This document shows, in pieces, positions 8,269 through 39,320 of a stretch of DNA of 64,000 nt. The first letter of the stretch is position 1, and every line of letters starts with the position of its first letter. A program made the position numbers and the translations under genes. The notes below the pieces were generated by a model that saw only the letters and a program-made list of their open reading frames with translations, had not been told where the DNA came from and did not search any database. Source of the stretch: a virus; the IMG/VR virus record IMGVR_UViG_3300032282_004151, positions 8,317-72,316 of that record. One strand, given 5' to 3'.

Positions 8269-8781
8269 ATGGGATACCACACTGATTTCCGAGGCAAGTT
8301 CGATCTGAACAAGCCCCTTTCTCCTGCTCACAAGGCTTATCTCCTGAAGTTCAGCGAGACGCGCCGCATGAAGCGCAAGCAGACCGTTGCGGCGAAGAAG
8401 CTAGACCCTATCCGAGTTGCGGCGGGACTTCCTATTGGCAAGCAAGGTGCTTATTTCGTCAATGGCGCTGGCTTTTGCGGTCAGGACAGCGATGATAGCG
8501 TCGTCAACAGCAACACCCCTCCCGAGGGTCAGCCGAGCCTATGGTGCCAATGGGTACCGAACGAGGACGGCACTGCCATTGAATGGGACGGTGGCGAGAA
8601 GTTCTATGAGTATGTGGATTGGATTGAGTATCTCATCAAGAACTTCCTAGAGCCGTGGGGTTATGTTCTCAATGGCGAAGTGGAATGGAATGGAGAAGAT
8701 CGTGATGACATTGGTATGATTGCCATTGACAGCAACGAAGTGAAGGTCAAGAATGGTCGAGTTGTTTACGAGGAGGTTTAA
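8269..8781 (+). CDS. conserved-looking phage hypothetical protein
   Basis: MGYHTDF..PSLWCQW..WDGGEKFYEY..LNGEVEWNGE. Confidence 0.85.
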   Translation: MGYHTDFRGKFDLNKPLSPAHKAYLLKFSETRRMKRKQTVAAKKLDPIRVAAGLPIGKQGAYFVNGAGFCGQDSDDSVVNSNTPPEGQPSLWCQWVPNEDGTAIEWDGGEKFYEYVDWIEYLIKNFLEPWGYVLNGEVEWNGEDRDDIGMIAIDSNEVKVKNGRVVYEEV

Positions 8782-11874: not shown

Positions 11875-12000
11875 ATGAAACTTCTCTCTTTTAACGGCAA
11901 AGTTTTCAAGGTAAATCACCCAAATCTTCCTGTCCCACTTCCGACGCAACCATTGTTGCCACCGAAGTTGATCACAGAGAAAAAGGTGAAAAAGCCTTGA
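11875..12000 (+). CDS. small Pro/Lys-rich peptide whose start lies in a hairpin
   Basis: MKLLSFNGKVFKVNHPNLPVPLP..; TGA overlaps TTGACT. Confidence 0.45.
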   Translation: MKLLSFNGKVFKVNHPNLPVPLPTQPLLPPKLITEKKVKKP

Positions 12001-12109
12001 CTTTATTTTACAAAAAATGTCGAGTCCCATATATTTCTAGTTGACTTTCATAAAAAGTCGGGTAGGATGTACGGGTAATCAACCAGAAAACCTCTAACTA
12101 AAAAATAAA

Positions 12110-12577
12110 ATGGGTTTGGATATGTATCTCACCGCCGAGCGGCTTGTCTCTGGCTACGACTACAACAAGGACGAGAACTTTGATAAGCTTCTTGAACTTA
12201 TGAACCTTAGCAAGGACGACGTTGGAGAGAGTGCCAGCGTAAGCCTTGAGGTTGGCTACTGGCGCAAGGCAAACGCCATTCACTCTTGGTTCGTCCAAAA
12301 TGTGCAGGATGGCGTGGACCAGTGCCAACGCTCGTATGTGACGAGGGAGCAGCTTGAGGAACTGCGTGACGAGTGCGTGGCTGCTTTGGCCGCGTACAAT
12401 GCTGGCGAAAAGATCGAGGCAGAGAACGTCCTTGCGCCCACAACCGGCTTCTTCTTTGGTTCTACGGAGATTGATGATTGGTACAAGAAGGACTTGGAAA
12501 AAACCATCAAGATCGTGGAGAAGTGCTTGAGTGACAAGTTCAAGGCTTATTCCTTTTTCTACCAAGCAAGCTGGTAA
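12110..12577 (+). CDS. conserved-looking phage hypothetical protein
   Basis: MGLDMYL..YWRKANAIHSWF..GFFFGSTE..YQASW. Confidence 0.88.
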   Translation: MGLDMYLTAERLVSGYDYNKDENFDKLLELMNLSKDDVGESASVSLEVGYWRKANAIHSWFVQNVQDGVDQCQRSYVTREQLEELRDECVAALAAYNAGEKIEAENVLAPTTGFFFGSTEIDDWYKKDLEKTIKIVEKCLSDKFKAYSFFYQASW

Positions 12578-12616
12578 GGCTTGACTTTTCATTTTCATCG
12601 AGTATCATTCCTCATT

Positions 12617-12772
12617 ATGAATGAAGCAAATGAAAATGGAGTTTTGTCTAGCATCCTTGAAGGTATTCTAAGTGTCACAGTTGGAATAATCAAGGTGCTG
12701 TTTATCTTGGTTGTTGGCGTTTTGTTCTTGGCACTTGGTGGTTGGATACTTGCCATGTTCAAGAATGATTAA
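12617..12772 (+). CDS. small membrane protein
   Basis: promoter upstream; long hydrophobic stretch. Confidence 0.7.
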   Translation: MNEANENGVLSSILEGILSVTVGIIKVLFILVVGVLFLALGGWILAMFKND

Positions 12773-12817
12773 AATAAGTCTGGACTTTCCATTATTATCT
12801 GCTAGAGTATTAGGACT

Positions 12818-13120
12818 ATGAACGCTACGAAAATTGAGCCGTCCATCTGCCATTACATCACCGCCAACACGCTTCACGAGATGAGCAAGCCTGCTGCCGA
12901 GGCCATCGACGCCCTATTCAATTCTGATCTGGATGTGTCCTTTGGCGATGCCAACCGCACGCTGATCGACATTCCTCACTTCATTCAGATGCTTGAGGAT
13001 GCCTTGGATCAGCAGGGCATCTTCTACGATGAAAATGACATCATTCACGGTGGGTTCATTGAAATCAAGGATGCGCTTGACGAAGTTGATCGTAACGTCT
13101 ACATTGATCTGGAGAATTGA
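12818..13120 (+). CDS. hypothetical early protein
   Basis: own promoter. Confidence 0.8.
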   Translation: MNATKIEPSICHYITANTLHEMSKPAAEAIDALFNSDLDVSFGDANRTLIDIPHFIQMLEDALDQQGIFYDENDIIHGGFIEIKDALDEVDRNVYIDLEN

Positions 13121-13140
13121 TTAATATTTATTGACATTAC

Positions 13141-13219
13141 GCTCTTGTATTGGCTCTGTCTTCTAAACAGATCGCGCATAACTGGATTAATGTGGGTTCG
13201 AGTCCCACCAAGAGCGCCA
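13141..13219 (+). tRNA. non-canonical D-armless tRNA-Arg(UCU)-like RNA with 20-nt variable region
   Basis: GCTCTTG/CAAGAGC-G-CCA; TCTGT-CTTCTAA-ACAGA; GTGGG-TTCGAGT-CCCAC; only 7 nt where the D-arm should be. Confidence 0.75.
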
Positions 13220-13263
13220 CTTTCTTCTTGATTTTTTAAAAAAAGTCTCCATACTATACCACA

Positions 13264-13443
13264 ATGAAACTCAAAGACTACATCAAGGAATTGCAAACTC
13301 TCGCCAAGAATTCTCGGCCTGACATTGAGGTTGCTTATGCTGCCGATGATGAAGGCAATCGTTTTGATTATGTGCGCTTTCGCCCAGCCGTCAATACTGT
13401 TGAGATCGACGGTGAAGAAGTTGAGGTTGTGACGGTCAATTAA
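13264..13443 (+). CDS. small hypothetical protein
   Basis: MKLKDYIKELQ..DDEGNRF; own promoter. Confidence 0.75.
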   Translation: MKLKDYIKELQTLAKNSRPDIEVAYAADDEGNRFDYVRFRPAVNTVEIDGEEVEVVTVN

Positions 13444-13446
13444 AAA

Positions 13447-13599
13447 ATGAAAAAATACGGCTATGTTCTTGTTGATGGAAACAAGATTTCCGTCAAGAAA
13501 ATCAAGTTCATTGACATTGAAGAAGATAGATTTGGCGTTGATCTTATGACCTTTGAATACAAAGGTAGGGTTCTTAAGTCATACATTTTTGCTGGATAA
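13447..13599 (+). CDS. small hypothetical protein
   Basis: MKKYGYVLVDG.. Confidence 0.65.
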   Translation: MKKYGYVLVDGNKISVKKIKFIDIEEDRFGVDLMTFEYKGRVLKSYIFAG

Positions 13600-13609
13600 T
13601 AATTTCAAT

Positions 13610-13685
13610 GGGCGGTTAGCTTAATGGTTAAAGCAGAGAACTCATAATTCTTTGAGTGGGGGTTCGAATCCCTCACCGCCCACCA
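13610..13685 (+). tRNA. tRNA-Ile2/Met (CAU)
   Basis: canonical cloverleaf with CCA. Confidence 0.92.
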
Positions 13686-13696
13686 ATTTTTAAACT

Positions 13697-13876
13697 ATGA
13701 AAGACAAAACCATCAAGTTCATCAAGTACGATCTCCCGTGTATTTTTGCGGCGCTGATCATTCCCATTGGCATTTACAACGGCGTTGTGGGCATTTACAG
13801 CAACAATGTATGGCAGTCTTCAACTGGCTTGTTCCAACTTCTTTTTGCTGCCGAGGTTTTTCGAACCAAGCCTTGA
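13697..13876 (+). CDS. small membrane protein
   Basis: MKDKTIKFIKYDLPCIFAALIIPIGIY..; stop overlaps -35. Confidence 0.65.
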   Translation: MKDKTIKFIKYDLPCIFAALIIPIGIYNGVVGIYSNNVWQSSTGLFQLLFAAEVFRTKP

Positions 13877-13909
13877 CATTTAAAAAAAGTCTGTTAGAGT
13901 ATCCTAACA

Positions 13910-14128
13910 ATGAGAACTGGATTTGTCATCGAGTTTAATGTTCGGGGGCAAGATGGGCGGATCTATCCGTCGTCTGTGATATCTTCCAAGCAATTTGGAG
14001 AGGCTGAGTTCAATGATCTAACAGGCAACAATTGCCCTCATGTTTCTGTTGACAATGATATCGAAGGTCACAATTATGAATACGATGTGCCTGTGAAGTA
14101 TGATAGGTGCTTCGTTGTATTGCCTTGA
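13910..14128 (+). CDS. hypothetical early protein
   Basis: own promoter. Confidence 0.75.
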   Translation: MRTGFVIEFNVRGQDGRIYPSSVISSKQFGEAEFNDLTGNNCPHVSVDNDIEGHNYEYDVPVKYDRCFVVLP

Positions 14129-14172
14129 CTTTAGATAAAAAGTAGTCATTCTAGTTCTTGTTCTTTTAGAAT

Positions 14173-14247
14173 GGGTTCGTAGCTTAACGGTGAAGCAGCA
14201 TCCTTTTAAGTTGTTGATTGTGGGTTCGAATCCCACCGAACCCACCA
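14173..14247 (+). tRNA. tRNA-Lys(UUU)
   Basis: cloverleaf, CTTTTAA loop, CCA. Confidence 0.93.
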
Positions 14248-14249
14248 AT

Positions 14250-14678
14250 TTATTCCACTCGCAAAGATTGGCCTTTGTAGGGTGACTCTGGAAGGTCGGA
14301 GTGAAGCCCATCGTGGATTTCACAATGACAATTCTTGCAGACAAGAATGACCTTCTTAAGTTCAGTTTCCAATCTGGAAATGTGGCCCTCGTTAAGTATC
14401 TTTGCTATCAAATGTTCTTTGTCATCTTTATCTTTATGATGAAAATCTAAAGCGGACAATGATTTGTTGTAATCACACAGGCAGCATTTCCCTCCGAAAA
14501 TGATGGATTTCACTTTGTGTTTTATTTCCCCACGACGTTTTCTTTTGTTAGCCAGAATGCTTTGTTTTGATTTTTCCGATGTGTGCCAATAGACTGTTCC
14601 AATAGAGCAATCCATAATTTCGGATATTTCTTTTGCCGATTTTCCTTGGTCGTGTAATTTAAGTATGTTTTCTTTCAT
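14250..14678 (-). mobile_element. free-standing HTH-HNH homing endonuclease inserted in the tRNA cluster
   Basis: HTH N-terminus; CCLC..LDFHH..LVCKNCHCEIH; antisense and AT-rich; ATATTTAT 4 nt before ATG. Confidence 0.85.
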
Positions 14679-14777
14679 ACAGATAAATATCGTCATTAAG
14701 TCTAAAACAGCGACTTAAATGCTATTTTGTTTGACAAATGATAGAAACTTTCCATACTTATTGTTGTTCTTTTCAAT

Positions 14778-14853
14778 GCCTTCTTAGCTCAATTGGCAGA
14801 GCACCTCATTTGTAATGAGGATGTTGTCGGTTCAAGTCCGACAGAAGGCTCCA
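14778..14853 (+). tRNA. tRNA-Thr(UGU)
   Basis: canonical cloverleaf with CCA. Confidence 0.95.
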
Positions 14854-14858
14854 TTTTT

Positions 14859-14933
14859 GCCCTCATCGTATAACGGTTAGTACACCGCCCTTTCACGGCG
14901 TAGATCGGAGTTCGATTCTCCGTGGGGGTACCA
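14859..14933 (+). tRNA. tRNA-Glu(UUC)
   Basis: canonical cloverleaf with CCA. Confidence 0.95.
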
Positions 14934-14938
14934 ATTTC

Positions 14939-15011
14939 GCAATGAACCCAAAGATGATGGAGGGGATGGCCTCGTGCCATAATAGCGCGTGAAAGCTCGC
15001 GCCTTGCACTA
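14939..15011 (+). ncRNA. tRNA-like multi-hairpin RNA
   Basis: GCAA/TTGC closing stem; ATGGC/GCCAT and GCGCG/CGCGC hairpins; ends ACTA. Confidence 0.4.
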
Positions 15012-15050
15012 TTTCCTTGACTTTCTGATAAAAAAAGTCATACTCGTTTT

Positions 15051-15108
15051 TGTTGGTTGAGATAGAATAGTCTATTAAAGATGGTTCAATGCCATTGCTT
15101 GACCAACA
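15051..15108 (+). ncRNA. small three-way-junction RNA with T-loop
   Basis: 11-bp closing stem, ATAGA/TCTAT hairpin, GATGG-TTCAATG-CCATT; promoter at 15017. Confidence 0.45.
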
Positions 15109-15136
15109 GTTATATTTTTAGTTCAATCTTATTTAC

Positions 15137-15346
15137 ATGAACACACCAACTCTAAATGAAATTGCTGGTTACAAAGAGCCAACTCATTTGATATCTACTA
15201 TGAATGATCTTGAAGAAAAAAATGCAGAACTTCGCAAGGAGTTTCTTCGGTTTGTTGAACATTTCAAATGCTTTGAAAAAACATCATCTGATCCTTCTGA
15301 CGCTGTTGCGTTCAAACGAGCCAGAGAAATTTTGAATAATTCTTGA
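15137..15346 (+). CDS. hypothetical protein
   Basis: ORF; stop overlaps -35. Confidence 0.7.
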   Translation: MNTPTLNEIAGYKEPTHLISTMNDLEEKNAELRKEFLRFVEHFKCFEKTSSDPSDAVAFKRAREILNNS

Positions 15347-24976: not shown

Positions 24977-25036
24977 GGGCCGGTAGCTCAGTGGTAGAGC
25001 GTTTCGTCGTTGGTTCGAATCCAACCCGGTCCATCA
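24977..25036 (+). ncRNA. anticodon-armless tRNA-like RNA with G3-U70 acceptor
   Basis: GGGCCGG/CCGGTCC, perfect D-arm and T-arm, 8-nt linker in place of the anticodon arm; ends A-TCA. Confidence 0.7.
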
Positions 25037-25907: not shown

Positions 25908-26096
25908 ATGATGAACACCACCGCCAACTACGCCAGCTATCGCCTCCTCTCCAATGGTCGCTGCATTGGGGAGATCAGCTTCCCCAACAACACCGTCAAC
26001 GCCAACTTTGGTGGGGTCTGCTTCTATGACCCTGTTACGGGCACCTTCCTTGGCACCACCAACGTCAACGGCTTTGTCCTTGAGCGGGTCGAGTGA
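25908..26096 (+). CDS. hypothetical early protein (last of the array)
   Basis: own promoter. Confidence 0.75.
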   Translation: MMNTTANYASYRLLSNGRCIGEISFPNNTVNANFGGVCFYDPVTGTFLGTTNVNGFVLERVE

Positions 26097-38015: not shown

Positions 38016-39320
38016 ATGAATAATAATGGTTATATCTTCATTCAAATTGCGGCATACCGCGATCCTCAATTGGTGCCAACAGTCAAGGACTGTATAGCTA
38101 AGGCAAAAAATCCAGATAAGTTGGTATTTTGCATTGCATGGCAACACTCGCCAGACGAAAACATCGACGAGATCAAAAGTTTGCCAAACGTGAAGATAAT
38201 TGACATTCCATATTTGGAAAGCAAAGGCGCATGTTGGGCGCGCAATCAAATTCAGCAAAGATATGATGGTGAAGAATATACTCTTCAACTAGACTCACAT
38301 CATAGATTTGTTGAAAATTGGGATGAGCTTGTGATTGGAATGTATAAGCAGCTGCAAGATATGGGACACAAGAAACCATTGCTGACTGGTTACATTCCAT
38401 CATTTGATCCAGACAATGACCCTGCTGGCAGAACACAATCGCCGTGGAGAATGGACTTTGATAGATTTATTCCAGAAGGTGCTGTATTTTTCTTACCCGC
38501 TACGATTGATGATTGGAAACAAAGAGATTGCCCAGTAACTTCTCGTTTTTATTCCGCGCATTTCTGTTTTACTTCTGGCCAATTCTGTTTGGAAGTTCCA
38601 CACGATCCTGAATATTATTTTCACGGCGAGGAAATCAGCATCGCGGTTCGCGCATATACACATGGGTATGATCTATTTCATCCACACCGTATTATTGCAT
38701 GGCATGAATATACACGCAAAGGCAGAACCAAGCATTGGGATGATCACAGTGGATCAAACAAAGACAAGATTTCGGACAAAAAGGATTGGGGAGAGAGAAA
38801 TTCTCAATGTCATAAGAGGAATAGAATATTGTTCTCTATGGACGGAGAGGATTATAACACAATAGAGTGGGGCAAATATGGATTTGGCAAAGAGAGAACG
38901 TTGAGAGATTATGAGAAATATGCAGGACTTCATTTCAAGAAGCGTGCAGTGCAACAAGAAACATTAGACAAGAAATACCCACCGAACAACTTTGTTAAAT
39001 ATGAGACAGAAGAAGAGTGGGAAAAATCATTCACTTCGGTTTTCAAGCATTGCATTGATTTGCAACTATCTCAATTCCCGCACGATGATTATACTTTTTG
39101 GTGTGTTGCATTTGAACGTCAAGATGGCAGCTTAATGCACCGCAAGGACGCGGATAAAAATGAAATACAAAGAATTTTGGGAGAAGCTCGCAATCCGAAC
39201 GGAGACAAATATATCAAGCTGTGGAGAGAGTTCAATTGTGAAGGCAAACCGCATCATTGGGTCGTATGGCCACACAGCGAGTCCAAAGGTTGGTGTGAAA
39301 GAATTACTGGAAATTTATAA
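38016..39320 (+). CDS. GT60-like polypeptide GlcNAc transferase (Pfam GlcNAc family)
   Basis: IFIQIAAYRD, SKGACWAR, LQLDSHHRF, F.GEEI..R.YTHG.D. Confidence 0.85.
   Translation: MNNNGYIFIQIAAYRDPQLVPTVKDCIAKAKNPDKLVFCIAWQHSPDENIDEIKSLPNVKIIDIPYLESKGACWARNQIQQRYDGEEYTLQLDSHHRFVENWDELVIGMYKQLQDMGHKKPLLTGYIPSFDPDNDPAGRTQSPWRMDFDRFIPEGAVFFLPATIDDWKQRDCPVTSRFYSAHFCFTSGQFCLEVPHDPEYYFHGEEISIAVRAYTHGYDLFHPHRIIAWHEYTRKGRTKHWDDHSGSNKDKISDKKDWGERNSQCHKRNRILFSMDGEDYNTIEWGKYGFGKERTLRDYEKYAGLHFKKRAVQQETLDKKYPPNNFVKYETEEEWEKSFTSVFKHCIDLQLSQFPHDDYTFWCVAFERQDGSLMHRKDADKNEIQRILGEARNPNGDKYIKLWREFNCEGKPHHWVVWPHSESKGWCERITGNL

Follow-up and report, generated by a model that had tools for sequence, protein, structure and literature searches.

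A tRNA-Arg(UCU)-like phage gene with its D-loop behind the anticodon arm: a probable elongator tRNA with an internally permuted core

What is a transfer RNA (tRNA) gene that lacks a D hairpin and has all its other arms intact—a relic, a decoy, or a tRNA wired in a different order? The question is raised by the element at positions 13141-13219 (+) of a 64-kb stretch of viral DNA (hereafter the window: 64,000 nucleotides, positions 8,317 to 72,316 of the 72,316-base IMG/VR record IMGVR_UViG_3300032282_004151). The element resembles a tRNA-Arg(UCU) and ends with discriminator G73 and an encoded CCA. An earlier reading of the letters alone, here called the original prediction, saw in it a D-armless tRNA with a D-loop-like sequence after the anticodon arm, and proposed either a decoder of AGA codons or a decoy for tRNA-targeting defences. 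Comparison with other phage sequences leads us to favour a working, AGA-decoding elongator tRNA-Arg(UCU) with an internally permuted core, representing a previously unrecognised phage-borne class; we give this reading a probability of about three in four. The anatomy of the sequence, a covarying helix, the tertiary partners, a link between anticodon and identity bases and the filling of a genomic slot are all computed directly.

Apart from the D hairpin at positions 10-25, the window element has every tRNA feature for which it was tested. The 7-bp acceptor stem is perfectly paired (GCTCTTG, 13141-13147, with CAAGAGC, 13209-13215) and is followed by G73 (13216) and CCA (13217-13219). The anticodon arm (TCTGT/CTTCTAA/ACAGA, 13155-13171) has a 5-bp stem and a 7-nt loop with U33, the UCU anticodon at 13162-13164 and a purine, A37. 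The T arm (GTGGG/TTCGAGT/CCCAC, 13192-13208) joins a perfect 5-bp stem to a loop of the TTCRA type. The three arms and the G-CCA end are thus present as the original prediction described them. Between base 9 and base 26, the D hairpin is replaced by just TTGG: the D-arm position comprises only 7 nt, TATTGGC (13148-13154), and a 20-nt insert, TCGCGCATAACTGGATTAAT (13172-13191), lies between the anticodon and T arms. The bases of bacterial tRNA-Arg identity are all present, at A13186 (A20), C13163 (C35), T13164 (U36) and G13216 (G73). The Rfam tRNA model RF00005 scores the element at 38.1 bits against a gathering score of 29 (E = 1.8e-4), and its alignment replaces 15 D-arm model positions with 4 nt and places a 17-nt insertion in the variable region.

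The short D-arm position and the long insert are two halves of one structure. Following U8 and A9 (13148-13149), strand X (TTGG, 13150-13153) runs on through a position-26-like spacer, C13154, into the anticodon stem; in the main subgroup of the family described below, X and the anticodon stem are always separated by one base. On the 3' side, the linker TCGC (13172-13175), a bulge or asymmetric internal loop, leads from the anticodon stem to strand Y (GCAT, 13176-13179), which runs on into the D-loop equivalent AACTGGATTAA (13180-13190). The latter carries A14 (13180), A15 (13181), G18G19 (13184-13185), A20 (13186) and A21 (13190), and is followed by the equivalent of U48 (13191), the Levitt-pair partner of A15. 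Positions 13151-13152 pair with 13178-13177. The X:Y helix encloses the anticodon arm, with its strands just after U8 A9 and just before an invariant U-A-A. Because X continues into base 26 and the anticodon stem, and Y into A14, X is taken as the equivalent of canonical positions 22-25 (the 3' strand of the D stem) and Y as that of 10-13 (the 5' strand). As read from the sequence, the chain order is 1-9, 22-43 with a linker of 3-8 nt, 10-21, 48, T arm and 66-76; segment 10-47 is circularly permuted inside a tRNA of normal length (76 nt). The 7 nt noted in the original prediction are thus not mere filler, since TGG (13151-13153) sits in a conserved helix with the bases that precede TAA. The label 'D-armless' is inexact, as a D-stem equivalent exists with its strands on either side of the anticodon arm.

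The lone window sequence folds no better than its shuffles, and the case therefore rests on comparison across many independent contigs. Viral contigs were scanned with three patterns. The first required a UCU loop, 21-29 unspecified bases and then GGGTTCGAGTCCC, leaving the D-loop unconstrained, and returned 64 stretches; 36 of them have exactly the layout of the window element (19 nt from base 1 to the anticodon loop) with different acceptor and anticodon stems. The second required the D-loop GGA directly before the T arm with any anticodon, and gave at least 120 stretches; the third required any base but A after GG. A MAFFT alignment of 77 distinct sequences served to build a covariance model, which yielded 140 matches of at least 50 bits across 181 sources, nearly all canonical tRNAs scoring about 41 bits or less and two rows falling at the border (L006, 48.4 bits; L133, 46.3 bits). 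The model gives the window element 86.4 bits and the canonical tRNA-Arg(UCU) of locus L001 35 bits, against 38 and 75 bits, respectively, under the Rfam tRNA model. Taken together, the three scans and the covariance model define a family of at least 202 members in at least 169 loci, mostly viral contigs, a count from which three rows with unparsed loops and another of doubtful standing were dropped. A lack of homologs sharing this arm order would have refuted the original prediction; such homologs are plentiful, and they bear out its view of an intact, selected tRNA in a rearranged topology.

Evidence for the permuted core comes from its pairing. In the alignment of 77 sequences, the two central X:Y pairs, equivalents of 11-24 and 12-23 in the D stem, form in 153 of 154 cells (99.4%; 77/77 and 76/77). 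The pairs are formed by varied bases—CG 47, UA 15, GC 10 and AU 5 at one position; GC 36, CG 24, AU 10, UA 6 and one non-pair at the other. When all 19 pairs of the structure are taken together, none of 500 shuffles comes up to the values seen, and pairing falls to 42-50% once the 3' partners are slid by 1-3 columns. The third X:Y pair, the equivalent of 10-25, forms in 50 of the 77 sequences against 32 expected, a number reached by none of 1000 shuffles; the exceptions include G.G (14) and C.A (12). All stems covary in the family, including the seven acceptor pairs and the five pairs of the anticodon stem. The linker measures 4 nt in 51 sequences, 5 nt in 16, 3 nt in 6 and 8 nt in 4. Base 26 was also considered as a partner of the last linker base and rejected, with pairing in 8 of 77 sequences only. 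An Ile-type set of 52 distinct sequences, which played no part in forming the X:Y idea and was aligned by fitting to the covariance model, pairs in 104 of 104 central cells, and sliding the partners reduces this to 42-52%.

The bases that join the D-loop to the rest of a tRNA core are likewise retained. U8, A9, A14 and A21 occur in 164 of 164 distinct family members, and G18G19 is present. The 15:48 combination is A:U in 160 members, G:C in 3 and A:C in 1; all three G15 members have C48, and all three were found in the flanks of other matches. The sequence partners of the U8-A14-A21, R15-Y48 and G18G19/T-loop contacts are therefore kept in the window element and in the family. This agrees with the original prediction, which had seen a D-loop-like stretch after the anticodon arm, and suggests that the displaced GG loop, in a stretch that keeps A14, G18G19 and A21, may still serve the elbow.

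Such recurrence bears directly on the two simplest explanations. A decaying pseudogene of a canonical tRNA-Arg, the functionless product of a one-off rearrangement, would account for the low Rfam score, for the failure of ARAGORN to call the element, for its unremarkable folding energy and for the normal tRNA-Arg(UCU) in a related phage; it is at odds with 202 members in 169 loci that have the same arm order and compensatory changes in every stem, X:Y included. An assembly artefact or chimera confined to a single metagenomic contig could be suspected from the sharp shift of composition and codon use near window position 26000, GC content being 45-50% in 4-26 kb and 33-42% in 26-64 kb. The element, however, is covered by contigs of an independent run, and the same architecture occurs in complete genomes of cultured phages. 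In the independent freshwater run, a contig covers 13097-13223 with 1 difference while the neighbouring open reading frame (ORF) differs at many sites, so that the element is near-identical beside diverged sequence, which again speaks against decay. Because the same architecture recurs in many independent contigs, in cultured phages and in an independent run, both explanations can be set aside: decay is very improbable, and an assembly error has a negligible chance of being correct. The freshwater contig joins 13223 to 13610 with 2 other letters between, skipping 13224-13609; in this variant, the small ORFs 13264-13443 and 13447-13599 are therefore absent between the permuted tRNA-Arg and tRNA-Met.

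The cultured carriers are Agrobacterium phage Atu_ph04, Stenotrophomonas phage SOVA965, Limnohabitans phage DC31 and two Alishewanella phages, including Slicko01. A blastn search with 1.1 kb around the window element found no match among cultured phages, and the named phages are matched by the 76-80-nt elements alone. A pattern scan of bacterial genomes returned at least 120 stretches; among 80 loci examined, 3 held family members, with 4 genes in all. The three carriers are contigs of metagenome-assembled genomes, of 16, 28 and 9 kb (L228, L247 and L196), labelled Proteobacteria, Levybacteria and Deltaproteobacteria, respectively; the last also carries a canonical tRNA-Arg(UCU).

Whether the displaced loop is read by a synthetase can be judged from the bases that accompany each anticodon. 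Among the members listed, the anticodons fall into two amino acid classes only, Arg and Ile. The A20-requiring pattern with a free anticodon produced 119 distinct listed matches: UCU 72, ACG 16, CCU 12 and UCG 9, all Arg, and 10 Ile. The ten Ile members of this set were found in flanks and have U20, except L073, a GAU gene with GGA. In the first scan, which left the D-loop free, A follows GG in 34 of 36 loci. The non-A20 pattern yielded 52 distinct matches—UAU 33, GAU 13, CAU 3 and three 89-nt oddities—with no Arg anticodon among them, and the discriminator is A73 in 51 of the 51 complete sequences. According to Table 1 of PMC9976931, bacterial Arg identity lies in A20, C35, U/G36 and A/G73, with A20 as the main determinant and described as unique among tRNA families; the same source lists A73, U20 and the anticodon among the determinants of bacterial Ile identity. 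Since the anticodon class tracks the bases at positions 20 and 73, the displaced loop behaves as a real D-loop read by synthetases.

This behaviour is hard to reconcile with a relic or with a decoy, the second function proposed in the original prediction. An RNA made and folded as described here might serve mainly as a decoy, a sponge or a nuclease-resistant substitute in the face of host defences that cleave tRNAs or lower their supply, its rewired core escaping or trapping the nuclease. Defences of this kind and phage tRNAs that counter them are documented (PMC10264068, PMC11464382 and PMC13056530); the restriction to two amino acid classes might reflect a class-specific threat, and in some phages a permuted tRNA coexists with a canonical one of the same anticodon (5 of 88 UCU members and 9 of 22 GAU members share their locus with such a separate canonical tRNA). 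A pure decoy, however, would have no need of identity bases, yet A20 goes with Arg, and U20 and A73 with Ile. The anticodon loop is ordinary, with U33 and A37, and in several genomes the permuted gene is the sole tRNA for its codon. No defence or anti-defence gene was linked to the element in any analysis, none of which included a lookup of nucleases acting on tRNA-Arg or tRNA-Ile. The decoy found no positive evidence, and we regard it as unlikely, though the least so of the alternatives weighed here.

A decoding role is further suggested by the place the permuted gene takes in phage genomes. The window record is about 23% complete by CheckV estimate and is accordingly a fragment of a large phage. 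Its tRNA genes form an array on one strand, Met, permuted Arg, Met, Lys, Thr, Glu and Leu, with small ORFs interspersed; a PHROGs search of eight neighbouring small ORFs gave a single match, of unknown function, and nothing informative. The closest relative (G001, 138 kb, 64% complete) carries the same permuted gene, which has the only UCU anticodon among 28 tRNA-family matches; 25 of these are called by ARAGORN, and two further matches missed by it are Gly(GCC) and Ile(UAU). A more distant relative (G002, 185 kb, with a neighbouring ORF 70% identical) has no permuted gene and fills the Arg place of the shared Met-[Arg]-Met-Lys-Thr-Glu array with a canonical tRNA-Arg(UCU). In the complete genome of Atu_ph04 (143 kb), the permuted gene is the only tRNA match, and SOVA965 has four canonical tRNAs alongside the permuted gene and no other tRNA-Arg. 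None of the ten other annotated tRNAs in the tRNA region of Slicko01 is Arg; this phage has one further match, at 45 kb.

The codons concerned are in demand. AGA is the commonest Arg codon of the structural genes in the window and accounts for 207 of 373 Arg codons (55%) in large ORFs of 27-64 kb, against 20 of 115 (17%) in ORFs of 1-24 kb, confirming the AGA-richness on which the original prediction had remarked. ATA shows the same tendency, with 363 of 781 Ile codons (46%) in 27-64 kb and 12 of 125 (10%) in 1-24 kb. AGA and AUA are the codons of the two commonest family members. The 26-64 kb block holds large ORFs, including a baseplate wedge and a glycosyltransferase, and the 4-26 kb block holds the tRNAs, small ORFs and a helicase.

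Two further loci combine permuted genes with other neighbours. Record G004 carries three permuted tRNA-Arg genes (UCU, CCU and ACG) within about 360 nt at L019:1178-1539 (-), beside a canonical tRNA-Arg(UCG), so that four Arg anticodons are divided between the permuted and canonical architectures. In SOVA965 (L180, record positions 38439-39053), 4 nt separate the end of an annotated HNH homing endonuclease gene from the unannotated permuted tRNA-Arg that follows.

Several observations weigh against a working permuted tRNA. The single-sequence fold of the window element is unremarkable (z = -1.28, with 22 of 200 shuffles folding equally well), and RNAalifold, applied to the family alignment, predicts the acceptor, anticodon and T stems and not the X:Y helix. 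Within the window element, only two of the three X:Y pairs are Watson-Crick: Y begins with G13176, which stands opposite G13153 as a mismatch unless the register shifts with a bulge. The same G.G opposition marks the subgroup of the window element (xTGG C ... GCA), where an alternative register with a bulged G offers G-C or G.U plus C-G; in the window, this register would pair G13153 with C13175 and C13154 with G13174, leaving G13176 bulged. A fourth pair between the first base of X and the last of Y was tried and rejected, as it forms in 11 of 77 sequences against 10.6 expected, with U.U in 58 of 77. The second and third search patterns imposed part of the invariance of TAA, GGA and ATG; the first scan and the flank-found members are free of it, and all 36 first-scan members show TA at positions 8-9, TAA, and AT before the T stem. 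The loci that hold a canonical tRNA with the same anticodon count on the same side, and with the record about 23% complete, the phage of the window may carry a canonical tRNA-Arg(UCU) elsewhere. Minimum free energy folding, tried on the window element and on five other sequences, did not reliably reproduce tRNA-like structures and carries no weight here.

For the working permuted tRNA, we infer transcription, processing, three-dimensional folding, charging and decoding along the following lines. The gene would be transcribed together with its neighbours, and RNase P and 3' processing would cut the transcript at normal acceptor ends. The X:Y helix would stack on the anticodon stem as a D stem does, giving one long interrupted hairpin, and the D-loop strand would lead from the top of this helix to the T stem, so that an L shape could result. 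G18G19 would dock on the T loop, A14 on U8 and A15 on U48, with A21 in its usual core contacts. The host arginyl-tRNA synthetase (ArgRS) would read A20, C35, U36 and G73, and the charged tRNA would decode AGA. The chain departs from that of an ordinary tRNA at only three joins, namely 9 to 22, linker to 10, and 21 to 48, each of which presumably links neighbouring layers of the core seen in tRNA crystal structures.

The permuted order probably arose by the simplest route, in which the internal segment 10-47 was duplicated in tandem and the outer copies were then lost. The Arg and Ile classes have very similar bodies, exemplified by the linker AGAAA and the loop TAAYTGGxxACAT, and this likeness suggests, at the level of sequence, a single origin with later switches of anticodon and identity. 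Some phage tRNA-Ile(UAU) genes combine a canonical D arm with a very long variable region (L429:3757-3857 (-) in G001, L356:12875-12963, L327:6357-6445 and L345:988-1076); the G001 copy has a 32-nt insertion in the variable region, and three 89-nt genes have a second D-loop-like motif (TAATTGG..AAT) just before the T arm. Viewing the 89-nt genes as an intermediate of the duplication remains speculation, because the 3' strand of the D stem is not complementary, as would be expected, to the bases that precede the second motif.

Transcription of the window gene could begin at a sigma-70-like promoter candidate, TTGACG-17-TACATT (13077-13105, +), which may start a transcript about 26-29 nt before the tRNA. 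The candidate is weak, matching 9 of 12 consensus positions, and lies inside the end of ORF 12818-13120; it is the only promoter-like site just upstream of the tRNA. The octamer ATATTTAT, noted in the original prediction, is present at 13124-13131, 9 nt before base 1, and has no standing as a signal in the promoter scan. Neither it nor TTGACA at 13131-13136 was retained as a promoter of the tRNA: both lack a -10 element at a workable distance, and neither appears in the scan. Promoter-like sites are dense across region 12000-15200, which has 18 of them, nearly all on the + strand, where shuffles would give 6.5.

The arrangement of tRNA genes and small ORFs on one strand, with many promoter-like sites, makes tRNA-shaped processing signals conceivable, and the element might be a tRNA-like structure kept for its acceptor/T minihelix: an integration site, a processing signal in a polycistronic early transcript, or a primer. 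The window does contain a second tRNA-like element, one that has no anticodon arm, at 24977-25033. Such a role, however, would not explain why the shape of the anticodon arm is fully conserved with anticodons for Arg and Ile only, or why synthetase identity bases are conserved, and the complete, covarying 7-bp acceptor stem rules out a fragment of an attachment site. We consider this explanation improbable, more so than the decoy. The element at 24977-25033 (+) consists of a 7-bp acceptor stem, a normal D arm (GCTC AGTGGTA GAGC), an 8-nt linker and a T arm, and ends in A-TCA; it scores 49.3 bits with the Rfam tRNA model, has a fold z of -2.93 and is followed by TTGACA-17-ATAGTT. Three more elements without an anticodon arm and with different acceptor stems occur in viral contigs L414, L415 and L416.

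The permuted genes are largely invisible to current annotation. ARAGORN calls six ordinary tRNAs in the window, the element at 13141-13219 not among them, and its calls overlap 10 of the 202 family members. The permuted gene of Slicko01 scores 27.6 bits with the Rfam tRNA model, below the gathering score, as do some other members. The copies in the Alishewanella phages are annotated as 'tRNA-Ser', and tRNAscan-SE reports the Atu_ph04 copy with an 'undetermined' anticodon. Because tools miss or mislabel the permuted genes, phage tRNA repertoires and analyses of codon adaptation omit some decoders of AGA and AUA.

A broader reading is possible, and we offer it tentatively, as clearly less likely than the working tRNA of the window. 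The family could represent a widespread natural class of phage elongator tRNAs for Arg and Ile that mature into an internally permuted three-way junction instead of a cloverleaf, and that are charged by ordinary bacterial synthetases and used by ordinary ribosomes. The rewiring would then be adaptive and not neutral; it could shield the AGA and AUA decoders of the phage from host factors keyed to the D hairpin or the variable loop, for instance tRNA-cutting defence nucleases and enzymes of decay or modification, and the class would be the first natural non-cloverleaf one outside organelles.

The cloverleaf is commonly taken to be the universal form of bacterial and cytosolic tRNAs, and the family contradicts this assumption outside organelles. 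A conserved natural family that keeps every core contact in another strand order would mean that the topology of the tRNA fold can change without bacterial translation having adapted to it. It would serve as a natural experiment on the construction of the L shape and bears on the reading of the D-loop by ArgRS and isoleucyl-tRNA synthetase, the two bacterial systems listed with determinants at position 20; the permuted scaffold may also interest engineers of orthogonal tRNAs. We found no description of the permuted architecture in the full-text literature searched, subscription journals and supplementary files lying outside the search, and a term search of a 2020 review of non-canonical tRNAs returned no mention of phages or permutation (PMC7609411).

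The nearest known relation is the canonical tRNA-Arg(UCU), for instance that at L001:3364-3440. The two are alike in the 7-bp acceptor stem, G73 and CCA, the 5-bp anticodon stem with a CUUCUAA-type loop, and the 5-bp T stem with its TTCGA loop; they share U8, A14, G18G19, A20, A21 and R15:Y48, the length of 76 nt and the position in the array. The permuted gene differs in that 22-43 precede 10-21, the D hairpin is absent, the junction is three-way rather than four-way, and the D-loop takes the place of the variable loop.

Class II tRNAs and allo-tRNAs (PMC7609411) likewise have a long stretch between the anticodon and T arms. In class II tRNAs, that stretch is a self-paired variable stem-loop accompanied by a normal D arm, whereas the phage stretch pairs to the 5' side and carries D-loop motifs. 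The window element has no D arm, and no conserved stem is predicted within its 20-nt stretch. Phage tRNAs of class II-like form do exist: the first scan returned UCU genes of 83-86 nt that have a normal D arm together with a long variable arm paired to itself, at L009, L012, L014, L020, L022, L025, L029, L032, L036, L038, L047, L048, L050, L055, L059, L063 and others. These class II-like bodies with an Arg anticodon may be allo-tRNA-like or recoding tRNAs.

Mitochondrial D-arm-less tRNAs, some of them also with UCU, resemble the phage family in having no D hairpin between the acceptor and anticodon stems, and this resemblance probably explains the 'tRNA-Ser' annotation of the Alishewanella copies. 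The mitochondrial tRNAs lose the D-loop altogether and are described as flexible molecules whose T arms are shortened and whose partners have co-evolved with them (PMC7609411). The phage family, by contrast, has D-stem pairing and a full D-loop with G18G19 beside a canonical T arm, and must work with the ordinary bacterial translation apparatus. In 2024, natural arm-less tRNAs were stated to exist only in mitochondria (PMC11551756). The same paper shows that histidyl-tRNA synthetase, EF-Tu and the ribosome of E. coli accept a synthetic D-arm-less 'mini HisT' without adaptation, polynucleotide phosphorylase being the obstacle. Mini HisT is thus another non-cloverleaf tRNA in bacterial translation, but it is artificial, is without bases 11-25, is predicted to be Y-shaped and needed a pnp mutation (PMC11551756). 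The phage tRNAs occur in nature, are as long as a normal tRNA and lack none of the core elements, whose order alone is new.

Rearranged segment order has precedents of another kind. The circularly permuted tRNA genes of a red alga, the split tRNAs of Nanoarchaeum and the two-piece permuted transfer-messenger RNA all depart from the usual order at the level of the gene, and either processing restores a canonical tRNA or the two pieces mimic one. The phage genes share the rearrangement of segments with these systems and differ in its location: the acceptor ends are in normal order, the permutation is internal, and it is the mature RNA itself that would have a new topology.

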